From Escherichia coli 042 (GTDB lineage: Bacteria > Pseudomonadota > Gammaproteobacteria > Enterobacterales > Enterobacteriaceae): a stretch of DNA of 64,000 nt. The notes under the pieces are model-generated. The model was not told the origin of the DNA, searched no databases, and worked only from the letters and a program-made list of their open reading frames with translations. The number at the start of each line of letters is the position of its first letter. Position 1 is the stretch's first letter. Below, in pieces: positions 2,946 through 49,903 of the stretch. Position numbers and translations under genes: made by a program. Location: NCBI RefSeq assembly GCF_000027125.1, contig NC_017626.1; one strand, given 5' to 3'.

Positions 2946-4012
2946 TCTTTCTTCAGCCGTACCCAGGCCCGCGTGCCGGAAGTCTCTTGCCGGTTTTGCA
3001 GGAAAAACTGCCCGTGATGCAACTGTGTAATGCGGCTGACAATACTTAACCCCAGACCAATCCCGCCATAACGGCTGTCCATACGTACAAACGCTTTACT
3101 CAACTCCCCGCATTTACTCTCATCAATACCCGGTCCTTCATCTTCAACGGCCATGACCGCTCCGCCATCTTCTTGCAGCTTAATCATAATGTTGCTGCCT
3201 TGCGGGCTGTAACGATGGGCGTTTTCTACCAGGTTTCGCAATAACATCCGCAGCAGGGTTGCATCACCTTGAACGGTGATGTCGGCGGCGCTCTCTGGCA
3301 ATAGCAGGGTTTGCTGTCGCTGGTCGAGCATGGTACTGAGTTCGTCATACGAGGGGAGAATGACATCTTCCAGCAGTTTTACATGTTGATAATTACCGGA
3401 AGAAAATGACTGTCCGGCACGCGCCAGTTGCAGCAGCTGGGAGACACTCTCCATCATCTGATCAAGCCGTGCCACTAACGGTGCTACATCAATGTGATGC
3501 GTTTTCGCCAGCAGTTCCAGATGCAAACGCACCCCCGCCAGTGGCGTTCGCAGTTCGTGCGCGACGTCAGCGGTAAACAACCTTTCGTTATCCAGCGTGC
3601 TGGTCAGGCGACTGACCAGATCGTTCAACGCCGAAACCACCGCTTCGATTTCGAGGGTGGCGCTGTGAATGGCAATAGGCGTTAAGTTGTCGGCGGTGCG
3701 CGCTTCCAGCTCTTTTTGCAGCTCCGCCAGCGGCCGGGTGATGCGGCGTACCGCCTGATAGCAGATAAATAGCGTCAGGCTGACCATAAAGACGCCGGGG
3801 ACGATCAGGCTGGCGACCGCCTCGCGGATCTCACGCATGATGTGGCGATCGTTGTTGCGATTGTCGCGTAGCGCCTGCTCAAACAGCTGAATCTGCTCGG
3901 TACTTTCATGCCATAGCCAGAAGACGCTGATCAGCTCAAACACCAACAAAATGGCCCCAATGGTCAATATCAGCCGTTGGCGCAGCGATATTGGTCGGCG
4001 CAGAAAACGCAT
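2921..4012 (-). CDS. basS: Sensor histidine kinase BasS/PmrB (363 aa from MRFLRRPISL)
   Basis: Protein recognised; ATG at 4010-4012 gives 363 aa. The ORF-track start at 4021 is a TTG extension. Confidence 0.95.
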   Translation of the reverse strand: MRFLRRPISLRQRLILTIGAILLVFELISVFWLWHESTEQIQLFEQALRDNRNNDRHIMREIREAVASLIVPGVFMVSLTLFICYQAVRRITRPLAELQKELEARTADNLTPIAIHSATLEIEAVVSALNDLVSRLTSTLDNERLFTADVAHELRTPLAGVRLHLELLAKTHHIDVAPLVARLDQMMESVSQLLQLARAGQSFSSGNYQHVKLLEDVILPSYDELSTMLDQRQQTLLLPESAADITVQGDATLLRMLLRNLVENAHRYSPQGSNIMIKLQEDGGAVMAVEDEGPGIDESKCGELSKAFVRMDSRYGGIGLGLSIVSRITQLHHGQFFLQNRQETSGTRAWVRLKKDQYVANQI

Positions 4013-4021
4013 CAGATTCAA

Positions 4022-4690
4022 TTAGTTTTCCTCATTCGCGACCAGCATATAGCCAAATCCGCGCACGGTGCGGATACGGGCTTTGCCCACTTTGTCGCGC
4101 AGATTGTGGATATGCACTTCCAGGGTGTTGGTCGAGGGTTCATTGTCCCAGTTATAGATGTCGTTGTAGAGAATTTCCCGATGCACCGGGCTGCCTGCTT
4201 TAAGCATCAGGCGCGACAGCAGAGCATATTCTTTGGGCGTCAGAATCAGTTCTTCTCCGCTCATCCATACCTGGCGGCGACCCATATTCAGCGTCAGATT
4301 GCCAACAATCAGCTCACTTTCGCCCTGATTATTATGGCGTCGTAGCAGGGCGCGGATACGGGCGTGTAACTCTTCCAGCGCAAAAGGCTTCACCAGATAG
4401 TCATCGGCACCGACATCCAGCCCGGCGATTTTGTCGGTCAGCGTATCGCGAGCGGTGAGGATCAGTACCGGCAGGGTGTATTTTTTCTGCCGGATACGGG
4501 CGAGAAAATGCAGTCCATCTTCGTCGGGTAACCCTAAATCCAGTACCACCAGGCTGTAATGACCGGCCTCAAGGCTTTGTTCCGCCATCCGCGCGGTTGT
4601 CACGCCATCGCACGCGTAGCCTTCGGTTTGCGCCGCCAGAATCAATCCCTGCAATAACAGCGTATCGTCTTCAACAATCAGAATTTTCAT
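4022..4690 (-). CDS. basR: Response regulator BasR/PmrA (222 aa)
   Basis: [16 protein letters not shown]... OmpR-family regulator; length and neighbours match. Confidence 0.95.
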
Positions 4691-6330
4691 TCACTCACTC
4701 TCCTGCAAGTTTGCAGAATATCATCCGCAGCCTGGTAATACTTCGTCTCAACGCCAGTTAATCCCAATAGCGTGGAGAATAAATTATCTTGTGAATAGTG
4801 TTGCGTTTGCGCCTGTTTTTGCAGGCAGTTCTGGTCAACCTGATACCGTTTTTGATAATCCTCCGACAGCCACAGCAGCATCGGCACCTGTTTTTGGCTA
4901 TCCGGGGCGATGGCATAAGGCAGACCGTGCAGATAGATGCCATTTTCACCTAACGACTCACCGTGGTCAGAAAGATAAACCAGGCTGGTGGTGAATTTAT
5001 CCTGATGTTCTTTCAGCAGATTAATCGCTTTATCAACAATATAGTCGACGTAAACCAGCGTGTTGTCGTAAGTGTTCACCAGTTGCTCTTTGGTACAGGT
5101 CTGGATCTCGTTAGTGTCGCAGGTTGGGGTAAATTTCCTGAACTGCGGCGGATAGCGGTTGTAATAGGTCGGACCGTGGCTGCCGATGGTGTGTAAGACA
5201 ATCACGCCATCACCCTGCAGGTTATTGATGTACTCTTCCAGCCCGTGGAACAGCACTTCGTCATAGCATTCGCCGTTGATGCACTGACCAGGCAGATTCA
5301 GCGCGGTGACGTTCTGGTGAGGCACGCGGTCGCAGGCACCTTTACAGCCGCCATCGTTGTCATTCCACAGCACGTTGATGCCCGCTCGCTGAATGATATC
5401 CAGCACGCCTTCCTGGTGCTGTGCCAGCTCTTCTTTGTAGTGCTCACGCGGCATATCCGAGAACATGCACGGTACTGAAACTGCCGTTGCCGTGCCGCAA
5501 GATGCGGTATTAGGGAAATAGACCACGTTATCTTTTGCCAGCCGCGGGTTAGTTTCACGCGGATAGCCATTGAGGGAGAAGTTCTCCGCCCGCGAGGTTT
5601 CGCCGACAATCAGGATGGTCAAATTTTTACGTTTCTCTTTCTGCATTAATGGGTTGCGGTGCGCGTCTTCACCAATTCGCACCAGCGGCAGATTTGCCAG
5701 TCGCTGATGGGAGTACCATGACCAGCTGGCAACAATGCTGTTAGAGGGGCTTAAGGATTTCACCAGCTCTTTGTTGTTGCGGAACAATGAGGCGTAGTCT
5801 TTATAAAACAGTGCGGCGACCAGCAAAATCAGCAGTACAGACACCAGAATATTGGCTCCACGGAAAAGAACACTGCGCAGGCGCGAGGTGGCAGGTTTGA
5901 TTTTAATCCAGCAGGCAATCAGCGCAGCAAGCACGCCGCTGAATCCCAGCGTTAATAACATTTGCGGCGTCATCAACGCATAACTTTCTGCCGGAGTGGT
6001 ATCAATAATATTGGCAATCATCGAGCGGTCGATGACGATGCCGTAAGTCATTATGAAATATTGTGCAGCCGCGCCGACCAGAATAAACAGGCAGGCCAGC
6101 GGTCGATTAAGCCATAAGAAAGAGCTTAGTGTCAGGACAATATTAATCACGCTGAAGGCGACGACTGGCATCGACAAGAAAACCAGTACGTTATGCAGCG
6201 AGTCCAGCGGCAGCGCCTGCAACACCTGTTTAAAAAAGGCAATATTCAGGCAGATAGAGATATAAAAAGCGGCCAACAATAGCCAGGCGAGTAAATTCAA
6301 AGAGGGTCTTTTTAGTAGGCGCTTCAACAT
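4687..6330 (-). CDS. eptA: Lipid A phosphoethanolamine transferase EptA/PmrC (547 aa from [11 protein letters not shown])
   Basis: Protein recognised; the ATG at 6328-6330 gives 547 aa. ATGA overlap with the basR start as in K-12. Confidence 0.95.
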
Positions 6331-6433: not shown

Positions 6434-7771
6434 TTAATCTTTGCTTATTGGTGCATCTAAGGGATACGGGTTTTTATGCAGCCGGTTGTAATTCAGCGCA
6501 TACATGGCGGTGATGACCATCAGGGTGACAAATGACCACATAACCTCTTTCGCCCCGGACCCCACCACGGCCCAGATGCAGTAGAGGAAGGCAATGGTAG
6601 TAACTGCCAGATATACCGGGCGTGCTTTACCAAAGTGGCCGTGGCCGAGCAGCAGTAACGCCGCACAGGTGTAAAGATATGGCACCAGTGTAAAGATGAC
6701 CGAGACGGAAGAAACCAGACCGAACTCTTTGGTCGCGTTTGGTGAAATGCTGCTGAGCTGGAAGATGGTCATCAAAATACCGACGATAATCAGCCCCGCC
6801 ACTGGCGTACCCGCTTTATTAACACGGGCAAAAATCGGTGGGAACAGTCCGTCATCGGCAGCGGCTTTCGCCGTTTGACCCGCCAGCAACGTCCAGCCGC
6901 CCAGTGAACCTAAGCAACCCGCAGCTGCGCAGAAGGAAACAATGGCCCCGGCGGTGTCACCCAACGCCATCCGTGCGGCATCACCGAATGGCGAGGCAGA
7001 AACGCGCAGTGCGGCATTAGGGATCATCCCCATAATCGCGGTGGTGGAGAGTACATAGCAAACGGCGGCAATCAATACCCCACCAATGGTGGCGATAGGG
7101 ACGTTGCGTTTCGGGTTTTTCACCACACCTGCGGCAACGGAGGCACTTTCCACACCGATGAACGACCACAGCGTAACGTTAAGGGTACTTTGAATTGCAC
7201 CGAAGGTGCCCAGGCCGCTGACGTTCCATGCCGCCATATAGGTTTCACCACGGAACCAGAACCAGCCAAATACGGCAATCCCGACGATGGGGATCAGCGC
7301 CAGCACGGTGGCAACGGCCTGCACGCGGGTGATCATTTTCGGACCGACAATATTCAGCAGGACGAAGATCCACAGCACCACGACGCAGGTGATGGTTAAT
7401 ACCAATGGATCTTTCAGAATCGGGAAGAAGTAACTTAAATAACCTACGCCAATGACCACCATGGCGATATTGCCGATCCAGCAGGCCAGCCAGTAGAGGA
7501 CGTTGGTTTGATAACCGAGAAACGGCCCAAAGCAGCGACGGGCGTAAGCGTAAGAACCACCAGGACTTGGGTCGAGGAACGACATTTTGGCGTATACCAT
7601 CGAGAGCCCCAGCGCACCGATAATCGTCACCAACCATCCATAAATGGCAATCCCGCCAGTGGAGGCCAGGTTTGCAGGTAACAGAAAAACACCTGACCCC
7701 ATAATATTCCCCGACACCATCAGGGTGACGGGGATTAAGCCCACTTTGTGAGCATCAGCATCCGAAGACAT
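6434..7771 (-). CDS. adiC: Arginine:agmatine antiporter AdiC (445 aa)
   Basis: APC-family transporter; sequence and length match. Confidence 0.95.
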
Positions 7772-42900: not shown

Positions 42901-43112
42901 TGGTTTACCAGTGTTCCGCCATTCACTGTTTCACCCGGGTGCACAACGATGTCAGCAGCCAGCACCGGGAGTGACGTGACTGCGGCAAGAGACAGTGCAA
43001 CCGCCACACCGCCACGTTTACCCCGTGCGCGGGCCAGTTCGGAGGCAACCACGAAAGCGCCCGTAATGTGATTCCATACCAGCCTGTAGCAGGTATTCAG
43101 ATGTCGTTTCAT
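39993..43112 (-). CDS. flu: Antigen 43 (Ag43/Flu) self-associating autotransporter adhesin (1039 aa from MKRHLNTCYRLVWNH)
   Basis: Signal peptide, repetitive beta-helix passenger and C-terminal beta-barrel; ATG at 43110-43112. Confidence 0.92.
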   Translation of the reverse strand: MKRHLNTCYRLVWNHITGAFVVASELARARGKRGGVAVALSLAAVTSLPVLAADIVVHPGETVNGGTLVNHDNQFVSGTADGVTVSTGLELGPDSDDNTGGQQIARGGTARNTTVTANGLQDVMAGGSATDTVISAGGGQNLRGQAYGTVLNGGEQWIHAGGSASGTVINQSGYQTIKHGGQATGTIVNTGAEGGPESENVSSGQMVGGTAESTTINKNGRQVIWSSGMARDTLIYAGGDQTVHGEAHNTRLEGGNQYVHKYGLALNTVINEGGWQVIKEGGTTAHTTINQKGKLQVNAGGKASDVTQNTGGALVTSTAATVTGTNRLGAFSVLAGKADNVVLENGGRLDVLSGHTATNTRVDDGGTLDVRNGGAATTVSMGNGGVLLADSGAAVSGTRSDGTAFRIGGGQADALMLEKGSSFTLNAGDTATDTTVNGGLFTARGGSLAGTTTLNNGATLTLSGKTVNNDTLTIREGDALLQGGALTGNGRVEKSGSGTLTVSNTTLTQKTVNLNEGTLTLNDSTVTTDVIAQRGTALKLTGSTVLNGAIDPTNVTLTSGATWNIPDNATVQSVVDDLSHAGQIHFTSTRTGKFVPATLQVKNLNGQNGTISLRVRPDMAQNNADRLVIDGGRATGKTILNLVNAGNSGTGLATTGKGIQVVEAINGATTEEGAFVQGNMLQAGAFNYTLNRDSDESWYLRSEERYRAEVPLYASMLTQAMDYDRILAGSRSHQTGVNGENNSVRLSIQGGHLGHDNNGGIARGATPESSGSYGFVRLEGDLLRTEVAGMSLTTGVYGAAGHSSVDVKDDDGSRAGTVRDDAGSLGGYMNLTHTSSGLWADIVAQGTRHSMKASSGNNDFRARGWGWLGSLETGLPFSITDNLMLEPRLQYTWQGLSLDDGKDNAGYVKFGHGSAQHVRAGFRLGSHNDMTFGEGTSSRAPLRDSAKHSVRELPVNWWVQPSVIRTFSSRGDMRVGTSTAGSGMTFSPSQNGTSLDLQAGLEARVRENITLGVQAGYAHSVSGSSAEGYNSQATLNVTF

Positions 43113-43304
43113 CAGCATTTCCTTAATCAGAGTGAGGGTGAATAAAAAAGCCGGTATCCACAGATGTGGATACCGGCAGGTAAAGGGTTACAGTGCCGGA
43201 GGTCCGGCTGACGGAAGTTTCTGACGTGTGGCTCTGTTGTTCCCTGAATCTCATGTCTGTGTGTATCTGCGCACGTTGCTAACAGGAGTTATTATTAGCA
43301 TGAC

Positions 43305-43340
43305 GATCGATATAAACGATCGATAAAATAGGTATCGATC
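43305..43340. promoter_or_regulatory. agn43 phase-variation switch: three GATC Dam sites (43305, 43318, 43337) in the OxyR-binding region
   Basis: ACGATCGATATAAACGATCGATAAAATAGGTATCGATCG about 200 bp upstream of the agn43 ATG. Confidence 0.7.
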
Positions 43341-43445
43341 GTTTTATTCTATTATCAGGCTATTGCACGGACAAGAGAGACAGTAACGAAAACAGCGCTT
43401 TTGTGAGCAGACTCAGAGGCAGGGAGGACATCATCCACAACAGGT

Positions 43446-44357
43446 TCAGAAGAAGATCCAGTTCCATACCGCGCGGGCAACAGAGACCACGGTGTCACGA
43501 ACAGCGCGCAGGGCCGTACGGACAACAGAGGCAACACAGACGCTCTCCGCTGTGTCAAATATCCGGTCCACCGCACCGGTAAACTGTTCACGGGCCTGAG
43601 AGCGGACAGACTCCGTGCGCAGCTCGTCCTGCAGTCGGGTCATCAGGGGGCTGGCGGCATGGTCGGGAAGCGCTGTCATGAGCGCACTGACCAGCGTATC
43701 CAGTTCCCAGCCGGTGCGGGCCGATACGGCAACAACCGGATGTACGGGCCGGAACAGACGGAATACCGCCTCCGTTTTCTCACGAATGTTCTGTTCCTGT
43801 GCGGGAGAAGGCTGAATACCTGCCATATCCCATTCATGGCAGGGTTCCGTTTTGTCAGCCTGCGTCACCACAAACAGCACCTGCTGATGTCCGCACTGCA
43901 GGATGTGTCGCCAGAAATACTCATCCACAGACAGGGCCCGGTCATCGGCTTTAATCAGCCACAGCACCAGGTCCAGTTCAGGCAGAATGTCACGGTACAG
44001 GGCTTCATACTCTGCATCCCTGTCCCGGCTCTCGCCCACCCCGGGCAGGTCAGTGATAACCATGCTGTGACCGTGACCACTCAGACGGAAGCGCTGCACT
44101 TCCCGGGTGCCGGCGTGAACATCACTGACCGGTGTGACCTCCCCCTGAAACAGTGCATTACAGAGTGAAGATTTACCGGCCCCGCTTTTACCCATAATGC
44201 CAATCACGGGTTCGTGACTGGTGAGTTTGCGCAGATGTTCCAGGATGTGACGGGAAAGTGAGTAAGGCAGGGAGGAGAGCGGTTTTTCAATTGCCTCAAT
44301 GGCATCAGACGGATTCATACATGTATTCCCGGTGAAAAAAGACAAAACCCCGCGCAC
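43446..44357 (-). CDS. YeeP/YfjP/YkfA-family GTPase (50S ribosome-binding GTPase domain); probable start at MNPSDAIEAIEK (44318)
   Basis: P-loop GIMGKSGAGKSS and an intact reading frame (yeeP is a pseudogene in K-12); upstream of agn43 as in CP4-44. Confidence 0.85.
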   Translation of the reverse strand: MRGVLSFFTGNTCMNPSDAIEAIEKPLSSLPYSLSRHILEHLRKLTSHEPVIGIMGKSGAGKSSLCNALFQGEVTPVSDVHAGTREVQRFRLSGHGHSMVITDLPGVGESRDRDAEYEALYRDILPELDLVLWLIKADDRALSVDEYFWRHILQCGHQQVLFVVTQADKTEPCHEWDMAGIQPSPAQEQNIREKTEAVFRLFRPVHPVVAVSARTGWELDTLVSALMTALPDHAASPLMTRLQDELRTESVRSQAREQFTGAVDRIFDTAESVCVASVVRTALRAVRDTVVSVARAVWNWIFF

Positions 44358-44427
44358 CGGAAAGGTGGCGGGGGATTCACGGAGATAATATCTGTCTGAG
44401 ATTATTTAGAATGTAACAGGTAATGAA

Positions 44428-45447
44428 TTACTTCCTTCGCTTGTGTTCAAGATATTTCTCTGTAATCAGCATTTCAAAAAACTCTCCTGTTCTCAGACCG
44501 TAAACAGTTCTGAGCTCATCAAGCATTTCTTTCACATTGCTTCTTATATGTATATTAATGGCCTTTTTACCATCACTCCGATATTTGTCCTTTTGTTTTT
44601 TCTGATGCCAGGCATGATTTATTCGTGTTCTGAACAGTTCAATGGTATCAGGCGCTTCTTTCCATAAAGCAAAGGCGACAAGAGAGGCAAGATAATATTC
44701 TTTCGTTGAAGATGGTATGAACCACCGGGTCACTGGGTTATGTACTGGATGTTTTTCATCCTGTTTTTGTTTCAGTCTTGTCCAGAACCACTGACACATT
44801 TCATCATCGTCAGGAAGGAACCACTTAAACTTTTGACAAGCGCTTTTCTTTTTAAGCCACGCCTGCCTGAGTTCCTCGAGGTATATGCTTTTTGCATTTT
44901 TATTAATTAAAGAATGGCAGGAGTCAAAATATGAAATGATTACTTTTATTCGTTCGTTATGGGATGATGGATTATCCGGAAGGTTACTTTTTTTGTAAGT
45001 ATTTAACGTTTCATCGGTAACTGTTCGTATTTTCCTGACTTCAATTCCGTTTTTTATTCCTGATGAATTATGGTTTATTTTCGGGAATTTTGTATGGTCT
45101 TCCTTCGACAGATAAATAGTAGTCCAGGTAAAGAAAGTCGCAAGTTCGTCAGTTTTCAACCAGAGAAAACTCTCTTCAGGCAGTATTGCCTGCCCTGCAA
45201 TAATTTCAAGTTCATTAATTTCTTTGCTGAGAGCTTCTTCTGCAGTCGAACCAAAAACACCAAAAGAATTGTTTGAAGCTTTATAATACTTTTCTTTTAA
45301 AAACGAATTAACATTTCTGATACAGTTTTGTGGGTTGTCAGGCGCAAACTGAGGGAATTCATTGGGGTATTTGTGATTCAGATATTCGGCATAAAACCGA
45401 CATTTACGGGGATCTTTGCATTTGATAAGCATCTGTTCGTTATTCAT
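44428..45447 (-). CDS. Hypothetical protein, 339 aa, Lys/Trp/Phe-rich, AT-rich gene
   Basis: Long ORF in a strongly AT-rich segment; no family recognised. Confidence 0.5.
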   Translation of the reverse strand: MNNEQMLIKCKDPRKCRFYAEYLNHKYPNEFPQFAPDNPQNCIRNVNSFLKEKYYKASNNSFGVFGSTAEEALSKEINELEIIAGQAILPEESFLWLKTDELATFFTWTTIYLSKEDHTKFPKINHNSSGIKNGIEVRKIRTVTDETLNTYKKSNLPDNPSSHNERIKVIISYFDSCHSLINKNAKSIYLEELRQAWLKKKSACQKFKWFLPDDDEMCQWFWTRLKQKQDEKHPVHNPVTRWFIPSSTKEYYLASLVAFALWKEAPDTIELFRTRINHAWHQKKQKDKYRSDGKKAINIHIRSNVKEMLDELRTVYGLRTGEFFEMLITEKYLEHKRRK

Positions 45448-46941
45448 TATCTCACTCCATGTCGCCTCTCTTATAACAAAATCGTCTCAATTTTATTTTG
45501 TCACTAAGTGATTATCAAATGTTTTTGTTGTGATTTGTTTATGTTTTTAAATGTCTATGTCATGTTATCAGTGTTTTTATATAAAGATACATTGATGTTT
45601 TTATGATGGTGAAAAATCATATTTTCTTTTATATTCATTTGGTTATGATTGTTTGTTCTGCATTTGGGGGATGACAGAAAAGAATGGGCTGTGTTGATCA
45701 CATGCGCCGTATGCGCTGTCCAGGTTACAGCGCACCTCAATATTCAGTGTTTTCCTGTTGACTGGCATTGTTAATCTTATGTTTTTGGTTTTGTTTTATT
45801 GTGTGGTTGTGAATGTTGTGTTTGGTTTGATGGTTGAGAAAGAAAAAAGAAGACTATGATGCACTAATCAGGAAATATTTTCGACGCCGGTTGAGTTAAA
45901 AGAACAGATAGAGTGGACAGGTGTTGTGTTAATAGTTTACGGCTGACAGCATTCTTATTTTAATAACAGGTGTTATTATTTATGGATTTATACAGACGAT
46001 ACTCCCGCTAAATAGTCAGGTGATGATGGTCGTTGAGTGGTTTTATAAGCTACGTATAGCTCTGTAAGACTTATTAATTCAACGATGACTACCGTTTATT
46101 GATATACATGTATTCGGGAAATGTCATAAAAAATGTCACGTTGTTTGCAGAATCTTTTGTTTTTTAGTTTTTGATACGCAATGACTAAGCAGGAGGACTC
46201 ACTTTGTTTGTATGCTGACCGTGATCGTCAGTGGAGATGAACAATTGACTCTTACACTGAAAAATATACTCTCTTGTTTTTTATCGTTTATCTGCATGAA
46301 ATAAATAATCTTCAGCATTTTTCATGTGAATTTCATCATCTTACCCTGAATGTTCATTTTATCAGTATGATATTCCTTTGTTTACTGATAAAATTAACCG
46401 ATAAATGTTCTTGTTAAGATTGCCAGAATGACAGTTTTTGCTGATTCCGTGCAATGGAAGAGATATTATATCATCTATTTAAGCAATAAGTTTAATACAA
46501 ATTTCAGAAGATGTGTTGGTGAGTTGATGACTAATTTTCAGAGGGGGATGGAAAAGTGTATGGAATCCCACAAAGAAAAAATCGTTATTGTTCAGTTGAC
46601 GTTTATTTCTGGGTGATGACTCCAGTCAGCAGAATATGTTTTTTTCGATGAATGACCCAATAACTTTTTCGTGAATTTCCACGGAGCATGAAAAGCAAAT
46701 CGTTTTCCGGTCCAGCCGTTTGATGTGGGAACGGGGGCAGATGGTGGTGCTCAATGCGCCGGGTAAATATCAATACGATTTGAGGAACCATTTGCTGGTT
46801 AATCTCTTTCCGATAGCATTGGATGCAGCAATCACTACATCCAACGTGAATAACCATGAATTGCACAGAAACAATATACCTGCGACCCTCTCCGGAAATT
46901 CCGGTATCACTGACTACGTACCGCCCGGGAGTGATTATGAA

Positions 46942-47541
46942 TCAACAGGCGTATAACAGGTACTCGTCAATCATCAGTTCAAGCTCGCGCTTTTCCCGTT
47001 TGCGCGCCACAGCCCAGCTTTCAAGTTCTGCGTGTGATTTATGCTTTAACTCTTCAGTCCAGGGCTGCATGGAGTGGGCGCACATCAGATCATACCAGCA
47101 CAGCCATATCAGGGTGTGGTAGAGATCGCGATCGTCAAAACGCCGGAGCAGACTGTTCAGCCTGTTTGCCAGTCGGCTTTCTCCCAGACGATGTAGTTCA
47201 CTGAGTAAAACACCACCCAGGTTAAAATGTGTAAGTAACATGATTTCATGAGTCTGAATGCTGGTCATTAACCCTTCCTGAATGGCAGGAATGAACGGTG
47301 GCGTTGCCGGGTTGACTACCTGATAGAGTCCCTGTGGTGCCACCGAGATGATGGTGCCTTTTTCCGGCAGAAAAAAGTGGGCCAGGGTCAGGCGATGATA
47401 ACCATGAAGATGCGGAGAGCCCATTCCGTGAGCGACAATAAACCGGGTTACACTTGCCATCCATTTCTGATGCTGGGTGAGCAGCAGATCACACCGGTTT
47501 TCAAGTTTTTGCATAATATTCTCTCCTTTAGCACGCAGCAA
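46942..47541 (-). CDS. Hypothetical protein (199 aa) downstream of alpA
   Basis: ORF in an operon-like position after alpA; no family recognised. Confidence 0.45.
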   Translation of the reverse strand: MLRAKGENIMQKLENRCDLLLTQHQKWMASVTRFIVAHGMGSPHLHGYHRLTLAHFFLPEKGTIISVAPQGLYQVVNPATPPFIPAIQEGLMTSIQTHEIMLLTHFNLGGVLLSELHRLGESRLANRLNSLLRRFDDRDLYHTLIWLCWYDLMCAHSMQPWTEELKHKSHAELESWAVARKREKRELELMIDEYLLYAC

Positions 47542-47599
47542 AATGCCTCCGGAGGCCGGATAGTGTATTCGCTGCGGTTGAACGGGTAATGGTCAGGAA

Positions 47600-47806
47600 T
47601 TACGGACGGGATTGTGCAATACGCGCCTGCAACCAGGCTTCCACTTCACTTTTCAGCCATCGGGAGCTGCGGCCGAGTTTGATGGGGGCCGGAAAGGCAC
47701 CATCCTTGATGAGCTTGTAAAACCACTTATCGGTTAAGCCGGTCAGTTGAGTGATAAACGCCATGTCGACCATCTGGTCATCCATCAGCGAAACTGGGGT
47801 ATTCAT
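47600..47806 (-). CDS. alpA: AlpA-family phage transcriptional regulator (68 aa from MNTPVSLMDDQM)
   Basis: Matches the CP4-57 AlpA MerR-like HTH protein; ATG at 47804-47806. The ORF-track start is an extension. Confidence 0.8.
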   Translation of the reverse strand: MNTPVSLMDDQMVDMAFITQLTGLTDKWFYKLIKDGAFPAPIKLGRSSRWLKSEVEAWLQARIAQSRP

Positions 47807-48504
47807 GAAAATGTTCCTCCGGATGTTGTTAATCTCAACCGGCGTTGGTGATGAAAAACGCACCACCTTCACTGGCATAACAACCGGGGAGAAACGTAAA
47901 AAATGAGCAGGGGAATATTCCTGTCGGGAGATAAACAGGGAGCATGATGCTGGGATACCCGGTGGCTACCGCGAAACGATGTTTCTCGCGCGTACGCACG
48001 ACAGAGAAGGGATGATTTTCGGGAGGATGAGGGGAAGAACCGTCGTTCTTATAATTGCAGAGTTATTTACGGGGCGGTTACGGTGGGGCAGCTCGTGCCT
48101 TGTGGGCAGGGACAGGTATCACCGATGGGATAAGACTGTCTGATTGGTATTATAAATATATAAGAGAGATCAAACACATGAGTTCATATCTGTGAAATAA
48201 ACACTGTGAGTGTGATCAGTGGGTATGAGAACGCAGTAGCAACAGATTACGTTGTACTCACAGGGCTATCCCTGATAGCTGGCGTATAACCTGCGTATAT
48301 AAAACGTACCTGCAACACACGTGAACAGAGTGCATTAAGCATCCGTCTGAGCGGTAAACGTATCCGACCTGGTGAGTGACAGTCTGAGAGACCGGTTAAG
48401 TGGTGGTGCGGGAGTAATGAGTTTGGGGTGGGTACCAGAATGCCAGTCAGGTGCGGTATGCTGGCAGTATCACGTTAATTGCAGCATAAAGTGATGAGAG
48501 GCTA

Positions 48505-48717
48505 ATGGAAGTTAAAACCAAAGAAGACTGGCTGTATCAGTTCCGTCGTTGTTCATCCCGGGAGACGCTGGAAAAAGTGATTTCCCACACACGTTATAAA
48601 CTTACCCTTGCGGAGCTGGAAGCCTTCAACTCTGCGGTTGATCACCGACTGGCAGAACTAACCATGAACAAACTTTACGATCGCGTTCCGGCTTCTGTCT
48701 GGAAATATGTTACCTGA
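48505..48717 (+). CDS. Hha/YmoA-family haemolysin-expression-modulating protein paralog (70 aa)
   Basis: ...[50 protein letters not shown] aligns closely with chromosomal Hha (..[50 protein letters not shown]). Confidence 0.8.
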   Translation: [70 protein letters not shown]

Positions 48718-49333
48718 ACGTTCGGTAATCACAGCGGTATTGTGCCGGGCGTTATATGCCTGTGATTCTTTTGCTCTTCTCTGGTTGCTGCAAAGCTGAA
48801 TATGTTCCTGTTGTTGGAGGCCGAGGTAATACCGGGAACGTTAAGCGGTATAGCGACAACAAAGAATTCGAAATCAAAAGGGAATGGTGTACGGAGGTGC
48901 GGGCGGTAATGGGCCGATTTTCGGGCATTACCGACCTCTGCTGAGGTTTTCTCGTATTAGCCGGGGATCCGGTGCGTTGAATATTGACGGCATAAACCGA
49001 CAGGCAGAGTCAGCACCAGCAGTGACGTCAGTAGACAGCGCCGACGATCGGTATTCCGGTAATGGGCAACATCCGTATTATGAGTAATTGCCTTACCACA
49101 ATCCCTGCACACCGTTTTGTGTATCACCATAGCTCCCTCCTCACAGTCTTATCTGTAACCGGTTTTTGGCATTAAAAAAACAACGCTGAAAATTCAGCCG
49201 TCAGTCCGGAGACGACAATCGGGTTATCACAGAGTGCCTGAGATATTGCCCGGTTGGAGGTCACTTCAGGGACTCTGCGCATTTTTTACGGCGTGGTTAT
49301 TCCGTATGAACGAAACCATACGGAGATTTAACC

Positions 49334-49903
49334 ATGACATACGAGTACAACCCCTTCTGGCAACAACGTATCCGTGAGACGGTGCTGCGCGCACTGGATG
49401 TTCATCCCCGTCTGACGGCATTGCGGATTGACCTGCGTCTCCCGGATGTACCGGCAGCAACTGACGCAGCAGTGATATCCCGCTTCATCAATGCCCTGAA
49501 AGCCCGAATCGATGCTTATCAGAAGCGTAAGCGCCGTGAAGGCAAACGCGTGCATCCCACAACCCTGCATTACGTCTGGGCCCGGGAGTTTGGGGAGTGC
49601 AAAGGTAAAAAACACTATCACCTGATGCTGCTGGTCAACCGGGATACCTGGTGTCGTGCCGGCGATTACCGCGCTCCGGGATCACTGGCCGGGATGATTA
49701 AACAGGCGTGGTGCAGTGCCCTGGGAGTGGATACCGGAGATCATACCACGCTGGCGCATTTTCCGGTCAGGCCGGCGGTGTGGCTGGAACGCGATGATGA
49801 CACCGGCTTTCAGCAGGTGCTGGAGCGTGCTGACTATCTGGCGAAGGAGAGTACCAAAGCTTACGGCACCGGTGAGCGCAACTTTGGCTGCAGTCGTGGC
49901 TGA
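49334..49903 (+). CDS. YagK/YfjJ-family protein (inovirus Gp2-like), 189 aa
   Basis: Family assignment from recalled similarity to the CP4-6 YagK and CP4-57 YfjJ proteins. Confidence 0.6.
   Translation: MTYEYNPFWQQRIRETVLRALDVHPRLTALRIDLRLPDVPAATDAAVISRFINALKARIDAYQKRKRREGKRVHPTTLHYVWAREFGECKGKKHYHLMLLVNRDTWCRAGDYRAPGSLAGMIKQAWCSALGVDTGDHTTLAHFPVRPAVWLERDDDTGFQQVLERADYLAKESTKAYGTGERNFGCSRG

Follow-up and report, generated by a model that had tools for sequence, protein, structure and literature searches.

A CP4-type island of Escherichia coli 042 probably carries an autoregulating ribbon-helix-helix protein with a long AT-rich upstream region

This analysis indicated that positions 44428-46941 of the window, i.e. 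of the whole 64,000-nucleotide stretch of Escherichia coli 042 DNA that was analysed, probably represent a regulatory module of a CP4-type integrative island, in which a 339-aa protein would act as an autoregulating transcription factor. We assign a probability of about 65% to this reading. The regulator consists of a helical N-terminal part of approximately 290 residues and a C-terminal ribbon-helix-helix (RHH) domain. The latter, presumably dimeric, would bind the palindrome ATCACTnAGTGAT inside its own core promoter or immediately upstream of it, so that the regulator would control its own synthesis. It would probably also control the co-directional genes that follow, the first of which encodes a YeeP/YfjP-type GTPase and may be co-transcribed with it. 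Given that most RHH proteins are repressors, repression would be a likelier sign of regulation than activation. The first ~80 bp upstream of the gene would contain the promoter and the operator. The next ~500 bp would descend from an ancestral cis-acting unit of ~570 nt, which appears to have degenerated in E. coli and to stay joined to the regulator gene in most of the lineages examined. The distal ~600 bp would be weakly constrained or unconstrained AT-rich filler, an insertion-prone zone with an IS1 scar at its end. The features are located as follows.

44428-45447, minus strand: regulator gene, 339 aa (open reading frame and RefSeq CDS WP_001403577.1)
44443-44577, minus strand: segment encoding the C-terminal RHH domain, approximately residues 291-335
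45490-45518, minus strand: best sigma70-like promoter match, TTGATA, 17-nt spacer, TAAAAT (10 of 12 consensus positions)
45500-45512, no strand: putative operator, 13-bp palindrome ATCACTnAGTGAT, with one mismatch in one arm of the window copy
45530-46015, minus strand: proximal non-coding region, approximately -83 to -568 from the ATG, probable counterpart of the ancestral ~570-nt upstream unit
45897-45925, minus strand: putative degenerate counterpart of block B, CCTGTCCACTCTATCTGTTC, ~474 nt upstream of the ATG
45928-45998, minus strand: hypervariable, indel-prone patch at the expected position of block A, with just 18% invariant columns
46016-46611, no strand: distal AT-rich filler, featureless except for one 16-bp inverted repeat (46352-46398)
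approximately 46612-46770 (159 bp), minus strand: IS1-family remnant, 3' end of the transposase gene (RefSeq pseudogene at 46626-46770)
46771-46941 (171 bp), no strand: native DNA separating the IS1 scar from the stop codon of the 199-aa gene, GC 0.444

A preliminary description of this DNA had reported a 339-aa open reading frame of conspicuously low GC content, followed by AT-rich DNA with only short open reading frames. The gene is indeed annotated in RefSeq, and its GC content is 0.370, compared with 0.332 for 45448-46611 and 0.505 for the whole window. The gene had also been regarded as an orphan, which proved incorrect, as it belongs to an unnamed family of 872 clusters at 50% identity. 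All named members that were checked come from Enterobacterales, and the comparison with related islands that had been proposed showed the protein to be conserved at full length across genera, with many invariant tryptophan, phenylalanine, tyrosine and histidine residues. Among 5426 complete E. coli genomes, the open reading frame was found in 244 and the gene-free region upstream of it, hereafter the gap, in 242 (~4.5%), and the two co-occur. Family members are labelled "transcriptional regulator" by RefSeq in some genomes, and the family goes without a name beyond this generic term in any source; the literature on YfjJ/YagK, on YeeP/YkfA/YfjP and on the island gene set yielded nothing about the regulator.

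With regard to the fold, the AF2 monomer model of the regulator (pLDDT 80, pTM 0.72) exhibits an all-helical N-terminal domain without structural neighbour. This large novel domain may be a sensor or an oligomerisation domain. The C-terminus carries the strand-helix-helix motif of about 45 residues by which the RHH superfamily is recognised in sequence or structure, with a short helix in the monomer model in place of the expected beta-strand. In Pfam, the regulator resembles one family only, the replication-regulator RHH family PF10723 (RepB-RCR_reg). The match is partial, covering model positions 39-76 of 81. With 14.2 bits (E = 0.043), the window protein falls short of the 21-bit gathering threshold, and the best family member reaches E = 1.2e-4. 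The earlier statement that the protein has no recognisable family therefore holds at the Pfam and NCBIfam thresholds, but it overlooks this weak C-terminal match and the RefSeq label. DNA binding by the regulator is predicted.

The promoter match at 45490-45518 is the best sigma70-like match in 44300-47000 and lies ~35 nt before the ATG, in a region in which a consensus scan found no excess of such sites (8 versus 9.2 in shuffles). A second -10-like hexamer, TATAAG, located ~23-28 nt before the ATG, is aligned with TATAAT in Yersinia. Among E. coli variants, the promoter/operator segment (45448-45529) exhibits a mean pairwise divergence of 0.040, versus 0.096 for the distal gap. All six clade-1 lineages (E. 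coli, Edwardsiella, Rahnella, Yersinia and the loci L052 and L053) have the palindrome 62-78 nt before the start codon, whereas the rest of their upstream DNA is unalignable. The palindrome occurs once in the 64-kb window, versus 0.11 copies expected by chance, and once per locus in all 12 clade-1 loci that contain an exact copy. In E. coli, it sits within the spacer of the best promoter match. This combination of conservation, uniqueness in the window and position inside the promoter spacer points to autoregulation of the regulator through the predicted operator. Clade 2 exhibits another palindrome, CTACTGTGTAG, which occurs twice at the equivalent position, as would be expected if operator and protein co-vary.

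The preliminary description had also suggested that such AT-rich cargo slots often carry defence or regulatory genes. The regulatory part of this proposal agrees with the RHH domain and the conserved operator. The defence part was ruled out for the 339-aa protein, since neither it nor its 199-aa neighbour (46942-47541, minus strand) matched PADLOC-DB v2 at E <= 1 and a PHROGs search returned nothing meaningful. The adjacent GTPase showed weak PADLOC matches to the LeoBC and LeoA models. That the position is a cargo slot is borne out by CP4-57 of K-12, in which the interval from yfjJ to yfjP carries the AbpAB and RnlAB defence genes.

The regulator gene was found to be part of a recurrent unit in which alpA and a yfjJ-like gene are combined with a long AT-rich stretch free of genes, the regulator and the GTPase. 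This unit, complete or incomplete, is present in Edwardsiella, Rahnella, Yersinia, Pectobacterium, Pluralibacter and Klebsiella plasmids. Metagenomic contigs also contain the gene-free stretch and the regulator, usually with the GTPase gene next to it, and the upstream module is present in Hafnia and other genera as well. The GTPase gene is absent downstream in two loci (L019 and L022), and some loci are incomplete. In 11 of the 12 lineages examined, 1.1-1.7 kb without a called gene precede the regulator, the remaining lineage having 565 bp. The earlier view that the stretch lies at a seam of the mosaic, between a CP4-44-like module and the alpA module, is supported by the IS1 scar and by strain EC08, in which the open reading frame is 99.8% identical and the gap 87.8%, indicating a recombination breakpoint; given the recurrence of the arrangement as one unit across genera, however, a seam between two modules is not the whole account.

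In the window, the 1494 bp upstream of the regulator gene contain no open reading frame of 100 aa or more, as had been noted. This is the second-longest such stretch of the window; the longest (47542-49333) contains the small alpA and hha genes. No other ~1.2 kb of the window is as AT-rich: in a ranking of 1257 sliding windows, all those at the top overlap the flagged stretch. Its AT-rich part had been put at about 1.5 kb, which is correct for ~1.16 kb only: the GC content is 0.359 for 45448-46941 as a whole, and the last ~330 bp, with 44-47% GC, consist of the IS1 remnant and native DNA. The idea that the gap hides an intact or decayed protein gene was rejected. Gaps of different genera share no peptides, the substitutions show no codon periodicity, no open reading frame is conserved, and the antisense open frames lie in differing frames and are unrelated. 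The short open reading frames of the E. coli gap are broken or lack codon bias in 12 variants, and a Pfam scan of six-frame segments matched IS1 only. Searches for relatives of the gap in plasmids found none, and a higher-sensitivity search returned none outside the 245 E. coli genomes already found.

Sequence constraint in the upstream DNA is most apparent in clade 2, where ~570 nt form an ancestral unit marked by two invariant blocks, A and B. These blocks are invariant in nucleotide sequence in at least nine genera and lie ~470-590 nt from the start codon, at a spacing of 93 nt (91 nt in L021) and with variable sequence in between. Conservation starts sharply at block A (about -570), and from there to the ATG the DNA is moderately conserved and has hardly any indels. 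The gene follows the A...B module at a distance of 456-483 nt in each of the 24 loci whose downstream sequence is long enough. Most clade-2 loci have block B, TCACTCTGGAATTATC, at -470 to -496; the corresponding positions are -491 in Yersinia and, by the longest-ORF start, -393 in Siccibacter.

In E. coli, 45897-45925 is putatively homologous to block B; this counterpart is nearly invariant in nine variants and similar to CCTGTCCTGGTCTGTTC of Rahnella. No match to block A was found in E. coli within six mismatches, and the patch at its expected position exhibits deletions of 26 nt (L012, L014) and 49 nt (L013, L015). Locus L052, with a total of 565 bp of upstream DNA, has neither block, and the blocks are thus dispensable at least there.

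It is improbable, in our estimation, that the long upstream region is transcribed, either as a regulatory leader in the mRNA of the regulator or as an independent sense or antisense non-coding RNA. The sharp 5' boundary and the near absence of indels in the clade-2 unit would agree with a transcript, as would the partial complementarity of blocks B and A on the antisense strand. The composition is also suggestive, since the sense strand is A-rich and G-poor (C>G) in nine of the ten gaps for which it was computed, Edwardsiella being the exception, irrespective of orientation on the chromosome and likewise on a plasmid. In the window, this skew is seen in the proximal region, which includes a CA-rich tract with microsatellite-type indels at ~45776-45860. 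However, the best promoter match, which bears the operator, lies only ~35 nt before the ATG, the sense strand of block A has no consensus promoter, and no terminator was found. The E. coli gap furthermore evolves faster than the third codon positions of the open reading frame (divergence 0.096 versus 0.059). A structured RNA was rejected, as neither RNAalifold nor the folding z-scores gave covariation support: on the sense strand (8 and 15 modules), only a 5-bp invariant helix was predicted, the antisense strand (8 modules) gave a weak fold with unconvincing covariation, and z-scores in the window averaged -0.35, with minima near -2.7 among ~70 windows. The small RNA that had been suggested for the non-coding part did not materialise either, because Rfam 15 returned no match in 44428-46941 at E <= 1, the lone match in 43000-48600 at this threshold being IS102/IsrC at 43137-43342, outside the flagged stretch.

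It is very unlikely that the A/B unit is instead a DNA site, e.g. a nick site or a replication or transfer origin, used by YagK/YfjJ, with the RHH protein as a copy-number or transfer regulator. CopG/RepB-type proteins fulfil these functions in rolling-circle plasmids, and the single Pfam family that the regulator resembles is of this kind. The YagK/YfjJ gene ("inovirus Gp2-like") lies across the gap in most relatives, and its products keep invariant H-x-H and Y-x-x-K motifs, as in HUH nucleases, together with a weak match to PF23343 (REP_ORF2-G2P). The invariant blocks at nearly fixed spacing would suit such a site, and they are degenerate in E. coli, where IS1 parts the gap from the yfjJ-like gene. 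The clade-2 block also opens with TTCTTTAATA, which is likewise found at the M13 nick site. Nevertheless, an origin of the Ff-phage type was rejected, since the M13 origin core matched eight gaps no better than chance: dinucleotide shuffles equalled its score in 29-99% of cases in most gaps and in 4.5% in Yersinia. Furthermore, no iterons or long hairpins were found, the repeats being restricted to short two-copy repeats and the 16-bp inverted repeat, and the A/B module had no match in viral contigs. Where cargo has been inserted, the module remains next to the regulator gene rather than yfjJ, and L052 has yfjJ without the module.

The non-coding stretch could also consist of decayed cargo genes and insertion sequences, without any function beyond the promoter. 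This explanation suits the distal ~600 bp, for which it is already part of the regulatory-module reading, and fits the proximal part poorly. At 46016-46611, there is no cross-genus similarity and no Pfam match in any frame, and few variants keep the short open reading frames intact. In relatives, the equivalent zone takes up cargo genes and IS elements, always distal to the gene-free upstream stretch. At the distal end of the window copy, the Pfam model DDE_Tnp_IS1 matched 46629-46769 (E = 1.5e-12) over its C-terminal 35 residues, and an IS1 terminal inverted repeat is recognisable by eye near 46612, where a regular expression for the canonical IS1 end gave no match. Transposase sequence and terminal repeat identify IS1, as a remnant and not as an intact element. 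The remnant has been eroded to differing degrees among strains: it is 617-624 bp long in other strains, and the window lacks ~606 nt relative to L012 and L015, in which the sequence corresponding to 46771-46941 is found on the far side of the element. The decayed gene that had been proposed is thus limited to this 159-bp piece of IS1, no other being recognisable. Since the E. coli gap diverges more than third codon positions do, its length may lack any function; the gap also contains strain-specific deletions, and L052 manages with 565 bp. As an account of the whole stretch, decay nevertheless carries little probability. Apart from IS1, no frame shows similarity to a protein family and no peptide is shared across genera. 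Despite the deletion bias usual in bacteria, more than 1 kb has been kept in 11 of 12 lineages, and 242 E. coli genomes, with identities as low as 85%, keep the entire gap. Moreover, the proximal ~570 nt contain invariant blocks in other genera.

The preferred reading, an autoregulated module of a CP4-type island, adds to the description of elements that are among the commonest accessory elements of E. coli and its relatives and that carry adhesins (Ag43), toxin-antitoxin pairs, antirestriction and defence genes. What is new is a large island-borne regulator family with a structurally novel domain, together with its predicted operator and the long upstream DNA that accompanies the gene. As for the AT-rich stretch, it recurs within the island family and has an IS1 scar at one edge; it is neither a defence gene nor a small RNA locus nor a recognisable pseudogene. 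For the window itself, the gain is modest, namely a better annotation of one gene, its promoter/operator and an IS1 remnant. A broader proposal, to which we give a low probability, is that the regulator gene and the ~570-nt unit form an undescribed cis/trans control module of CP4-type islands, in which A/B could be the recognition or nick site of YagK/YfjJ or the core of a long leader. If so, the A/B element would tie excision, replication or transfer of the island to the expression of the co-directional array, comprising GTPase, antirestriction, RadC and toxin-antitoxin genes, and the E. coli copy in the window would be a decaying version of the module.

Several known systems resemble the module in part. 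With its 33% GC in a 50% GC genome, its long intergenic region and an Hha paralogue ~2 kb away (48505-48717), the stretch resembles island regions silenced by H-NS, and its AT-rich DNA may be silenced likewise. It differs from such regions in that the published high-affinity H-NS motif is not enriched in it (4 matches versus 2.8 expected) and in that the sequence-specific invariant blocks of relatives are not explained by generic silencing. Repressors of the RHH type (CopG/Arc/MetJ), including plasmid copy-number regulators (PF10723) and RHH antitoxins, are among the closest known systems. The CP4-57, CP4-6 and CP4-44 islands of K-12 share with the window a backbone comprising alpA, a yfjJ/yagK-like gene, a YeeP/YfjP/YkfA-type GTPase, DUF932 and the antirestriction, RadC and CbtA/CbeA genes. 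The window resembles CP4-44 in carrying Ag43 and the IS102/IsrC RNA. In contrast, the interval between yfjJ and the GTPase gene in CP4-57 carries abpBA, yfjM and rnlAB in place of the regulator and its leader.

This analysis indicated that the AT-rich stretch at 44428-46941 most likely holds an autoregulated island regulator of the RHH type together with its promoter and operator, a degenerate ancestral cis-acting unit of about 570 nt, distal AT-rich filler and an IS1 scar. The 339-aa ORF and the ORF-poor stretch reported in the preliminary description were both confirmed as real. The GC content is 0.370 in the ORF and 0.332 in the gap upstream of its start (45448-46611), compared with 0.505 in the whole window; no other 1.2 kb of the window is as AT-rich, and among its stretches without ORFs of at least 100 aa only one is longer. 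The final ~330 bp differ, being an IS1-family piece followed by native DNA. Other strains retain 617-624 bp of the IS1 element, of which ~606 nt are missing from the window copy. The window sequence matches the chromosome of E. coli 55989 at 100% identity (NC_011748.1, near 3.435 Mb), from which the RefSeq annotation was taken. The features of the locus are as follows, with a type VI secretion cluster annotated in RefSeq beyond the last of them.

agn43, (-), first in minus-strand order and followed by the GTPase gene (RefSeq)
43137-43342, (-), IS102/IsrC sRNA, between agn43 and the GTPase gene (full-length Rfam match, 255 bits, E = 1e-49)
43446-44318 in RefSeq, 43446-44357 also given, (-), YeeP-like GTPase
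44428-45447, (-), regulator (ORF and RefSeq, 'hypothetical protein')
about 46612-46770, (-), 3' end of an IS1-family element (Pfam DDE_Tnp_IS1, E = 1.5e-12)
46626-46770, (-), IS1 transposase pseudogene (RefSeq)
46771-46941, native DNA downstream of the 199-aa gene
46942-47541, (-), 199-aa ORF; 46942-47514 as a 190-aa RefSeq hypothetical protein
47600-47806, (-), AlpA-like HTH protein (RefSeq)
48505-48717, (+), hha paralogue (RefSeq)
49334-49903, (+), 'inovirus Gp2 family' (YagK/YfjJ) gene (RefSeq)

With regard to the regulator, its sole match in Pfam and NCBIfam is C-terminal and sub-threshold, to the replication-regulator RHH family PF10723 (14.2 bits; cutoff 21), and the PADLOC models gave no match to it. 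A word-indexed search retrieved 8 clusters, and 39 once a Klebsiella plasmid homologue was added. An exhaustive profile search retrieved 872 clusters (50% identity level) at E <= 1e-3, 445 at E <= 1e-10 and 132 at E <= 1e-30, almost all members being full-length (290-340 aa). The named members looked up, from E. coli, E. albertii, Serratia and Moellerella, are each labelled 'hypothetical protein'; in some genomes the RefSeq label is 'transcriptional regulator'. AlphaFold2 (35 sequences) predicted an all-helical protein (pLDDT 80, pTM 0.72).

A long upstream region characterises the regulator family. Between 1089 and 1690 bp without a called gene precede it in Edwardsiella, Rahnella, Yersinia, a Klebsiella IncFIB/IncHI1B plasmid, Pluralibacter, Pectobacterium and metagenomic contigs; a single lineage, L052, has just 565 bp. 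In these relatives the regulator is mostly followed by a YeeP-like GTPase gene, its usual downstream neighbour across genera, alpA and a yfjJ-like gene usually lie past the gap, and any inserted AAA ATPase gene, IS21 or DDE transposase is always distal to the gene-free stretch. All gaps with computed composition are AT-rich, with an A-rich sense strand and C exceeding G in 9 of 10. Of 5426 complete E. coli genomes, 244 have the ORF and 242 the gap, which is unannotated every time and full-length down to ~85% identity. Comparison of strain EC08 with 44428-46611 of the window gave 99.8% identity for the regulator ORF and 87.8% for the adjacent gap, indicating recombination with a breakpoint close to the promoter. 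A CA-rich tract at ~45776-45815 (AAAACAAAACC...) is microsatellite-like, and strain EC1515 carries an extra 11-nt unit.

The upstream DNA of E. coli, Edwardsiella, Rahnella, Yersinia and two metagenomic lineages (clade 1) could not be aligned, save for a 13-bp palindrome, ATCACTnAGTGAT, located 62-78 nt before the start codon. In the window it occurs as a single copy with one mismatch (45500-45512; 0.11 expected by chance), and exact copies are present in 12 clade-1 loci, one per locus. The best sigma70-like match in E. coli is TTGATA-17-TAAAAT (45518-45490), and the palindrome starts directly after its -35 hexamer. As such sites are no commoner in the region than in shuffles, this match is a tentative promoter. 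A second -10-like hexamer, TATAAG, lies nearer the ATG, and its counterpart in the Yersinia alignment is TATAAT. Clade 2, which comprises relatives at ~30% protein identity, including the Klebsiella plasmid locus, exhibits another repeated palindrome, CTACTGTGTAG, at the equivalent place.

Conservation in clade 2 has a sharp onset ~570 nt upstream. It is marked by the invariant block A (31 nt, CTTCTTTAATATATTAATACCAATCCAACAC), which is followed in nearly every case exactly 93 nt downstream by the 16-nt block B, TCACTCTGGAATTATC. Both blocks are invariant in at least nine genera, about 470-590 nt before the regulator start codon. Examples of the module are found at 5397-5560 of locus L019 and 3374-3537 of locus L030, and in 25 other loci. 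A pattern scan yielded 18 further metagenomic loci and no match in viral contigs, and the start codon follows the module by 456-483 nt in 24/24 loci with enough sequence. Recognisable versions of A and/or B occur in the clade-1 lineages L053, Edwardsiella, Rahnella and Yersinia, and the module is therefore older than the clade split. In E. coli, only a degenerate B-like block is left, at about 45902-45921 and thus 474 nt from the ATG, and a hypervariable patch, partly deleted in several strains, occupies the place of block A. Neither block is explained by coding signal, covariation or promoter consensus.

Three other explanations were weighed, each without positive evidence here. The foremost, a long leader or non-coding RNA, is rather improbable. 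Over 43000-48600, Rfam matched no RNA family besides IS102/IsrC; RNAalifold found no covarying structure in the gap, and its folding z-scores are unremarkable. The only notable local structure of the distal gap is a 16-bp inverted repeat at 46352-46398 (GTTCATTTTATCAGTA / TACTGATAAAATTAAC; 94% complementary, 15-nt loop; z ~ -2.6 on both strands), which is not followed by a T-run. Coding content is likewise not apparent: the gaps of different genera have no peptides in common, and three-base periodicity of substitutions is absent. The open frame through block A lacks start codons and is interrupted by a stop codon in Pectobacterium, and its translations between the blocks are unrelated; antisense open frames lie in differing frames and are mutually unrelated. 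Among 12 E. coli variants, no short gap ORF is both coding-like and intact; mean pairwise divergence rises from 0.024 at codon positions 1+2, through 0.040 in the promoter segment and 0.059 at codon position 3, to 0.096 in the distal gap.

A nick site or origin for the YagK/YfjJ protein is unlikely. From their sequences, these proteins look like HUH-type nucleases: H-x-H (HYH plus hydrophobic residues) and Y-x-x-K-x-x-x-K are invariant in eight diverse members, and there is a weak Pfam match to PF23343 (REP_ORF2-G2P). Further members lie at 4261-4911, 3267-3836 and 6548-7174 of loci L003, L019 and L054, respectively; our literature search found no functional study of them. Block A resembles the M13 nick site, yet not above chance. 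Pure decay is equally unlikely.

Turning to the neighbours of the regulator, the gene for the 199-aa protein lies between alpA and the IS1 scar and is kept beside the AlpA-like gene in all E. coli variants examined; the protein itself matched nothing in Pfam, NCBIfam, PADLOC or PHROGs. The island-internal Hha paralogue lies ~2 kb from the AT-rich stretch, and its gene carries a frameshift in one or more strains; Hha is the haemolysin expression modulator, a partner of H-NS. The YeeP-like GTPase gave weak, partial-length PADLOC matches to the dynamin-like LeoBC (E = 1.7e-8) and to LeoA.

Defence-like cargo adjoins the alpA/yfjJ module in island relatives (L003, 1-2908; L005, 1-1743; L021, 1563-3389). 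The Edwardsiella relative carries genes for an OLD-family TOPRIM/AAA ATPase and a UvrD-like helicase (Gabija-like), the Rahnella relative only an OLD-family ATPase gene at the locus edge, and L021 a lone AAA_15/AAA_21 ATPase gene. The arrangement of agn43, IS102/IsrC and the GTPase gene is the same in K-12 CP4-44. The proposed cargo slot does not hold defence cargo here, where it consists of the regulator and its upstream DNA, but the idea fits the island family, since in K-12 CP4-57 the interval from yfjJ to the GTPase gene yfjP is occupied by abpB, abpA, yfjM, rnlA and rnlB.
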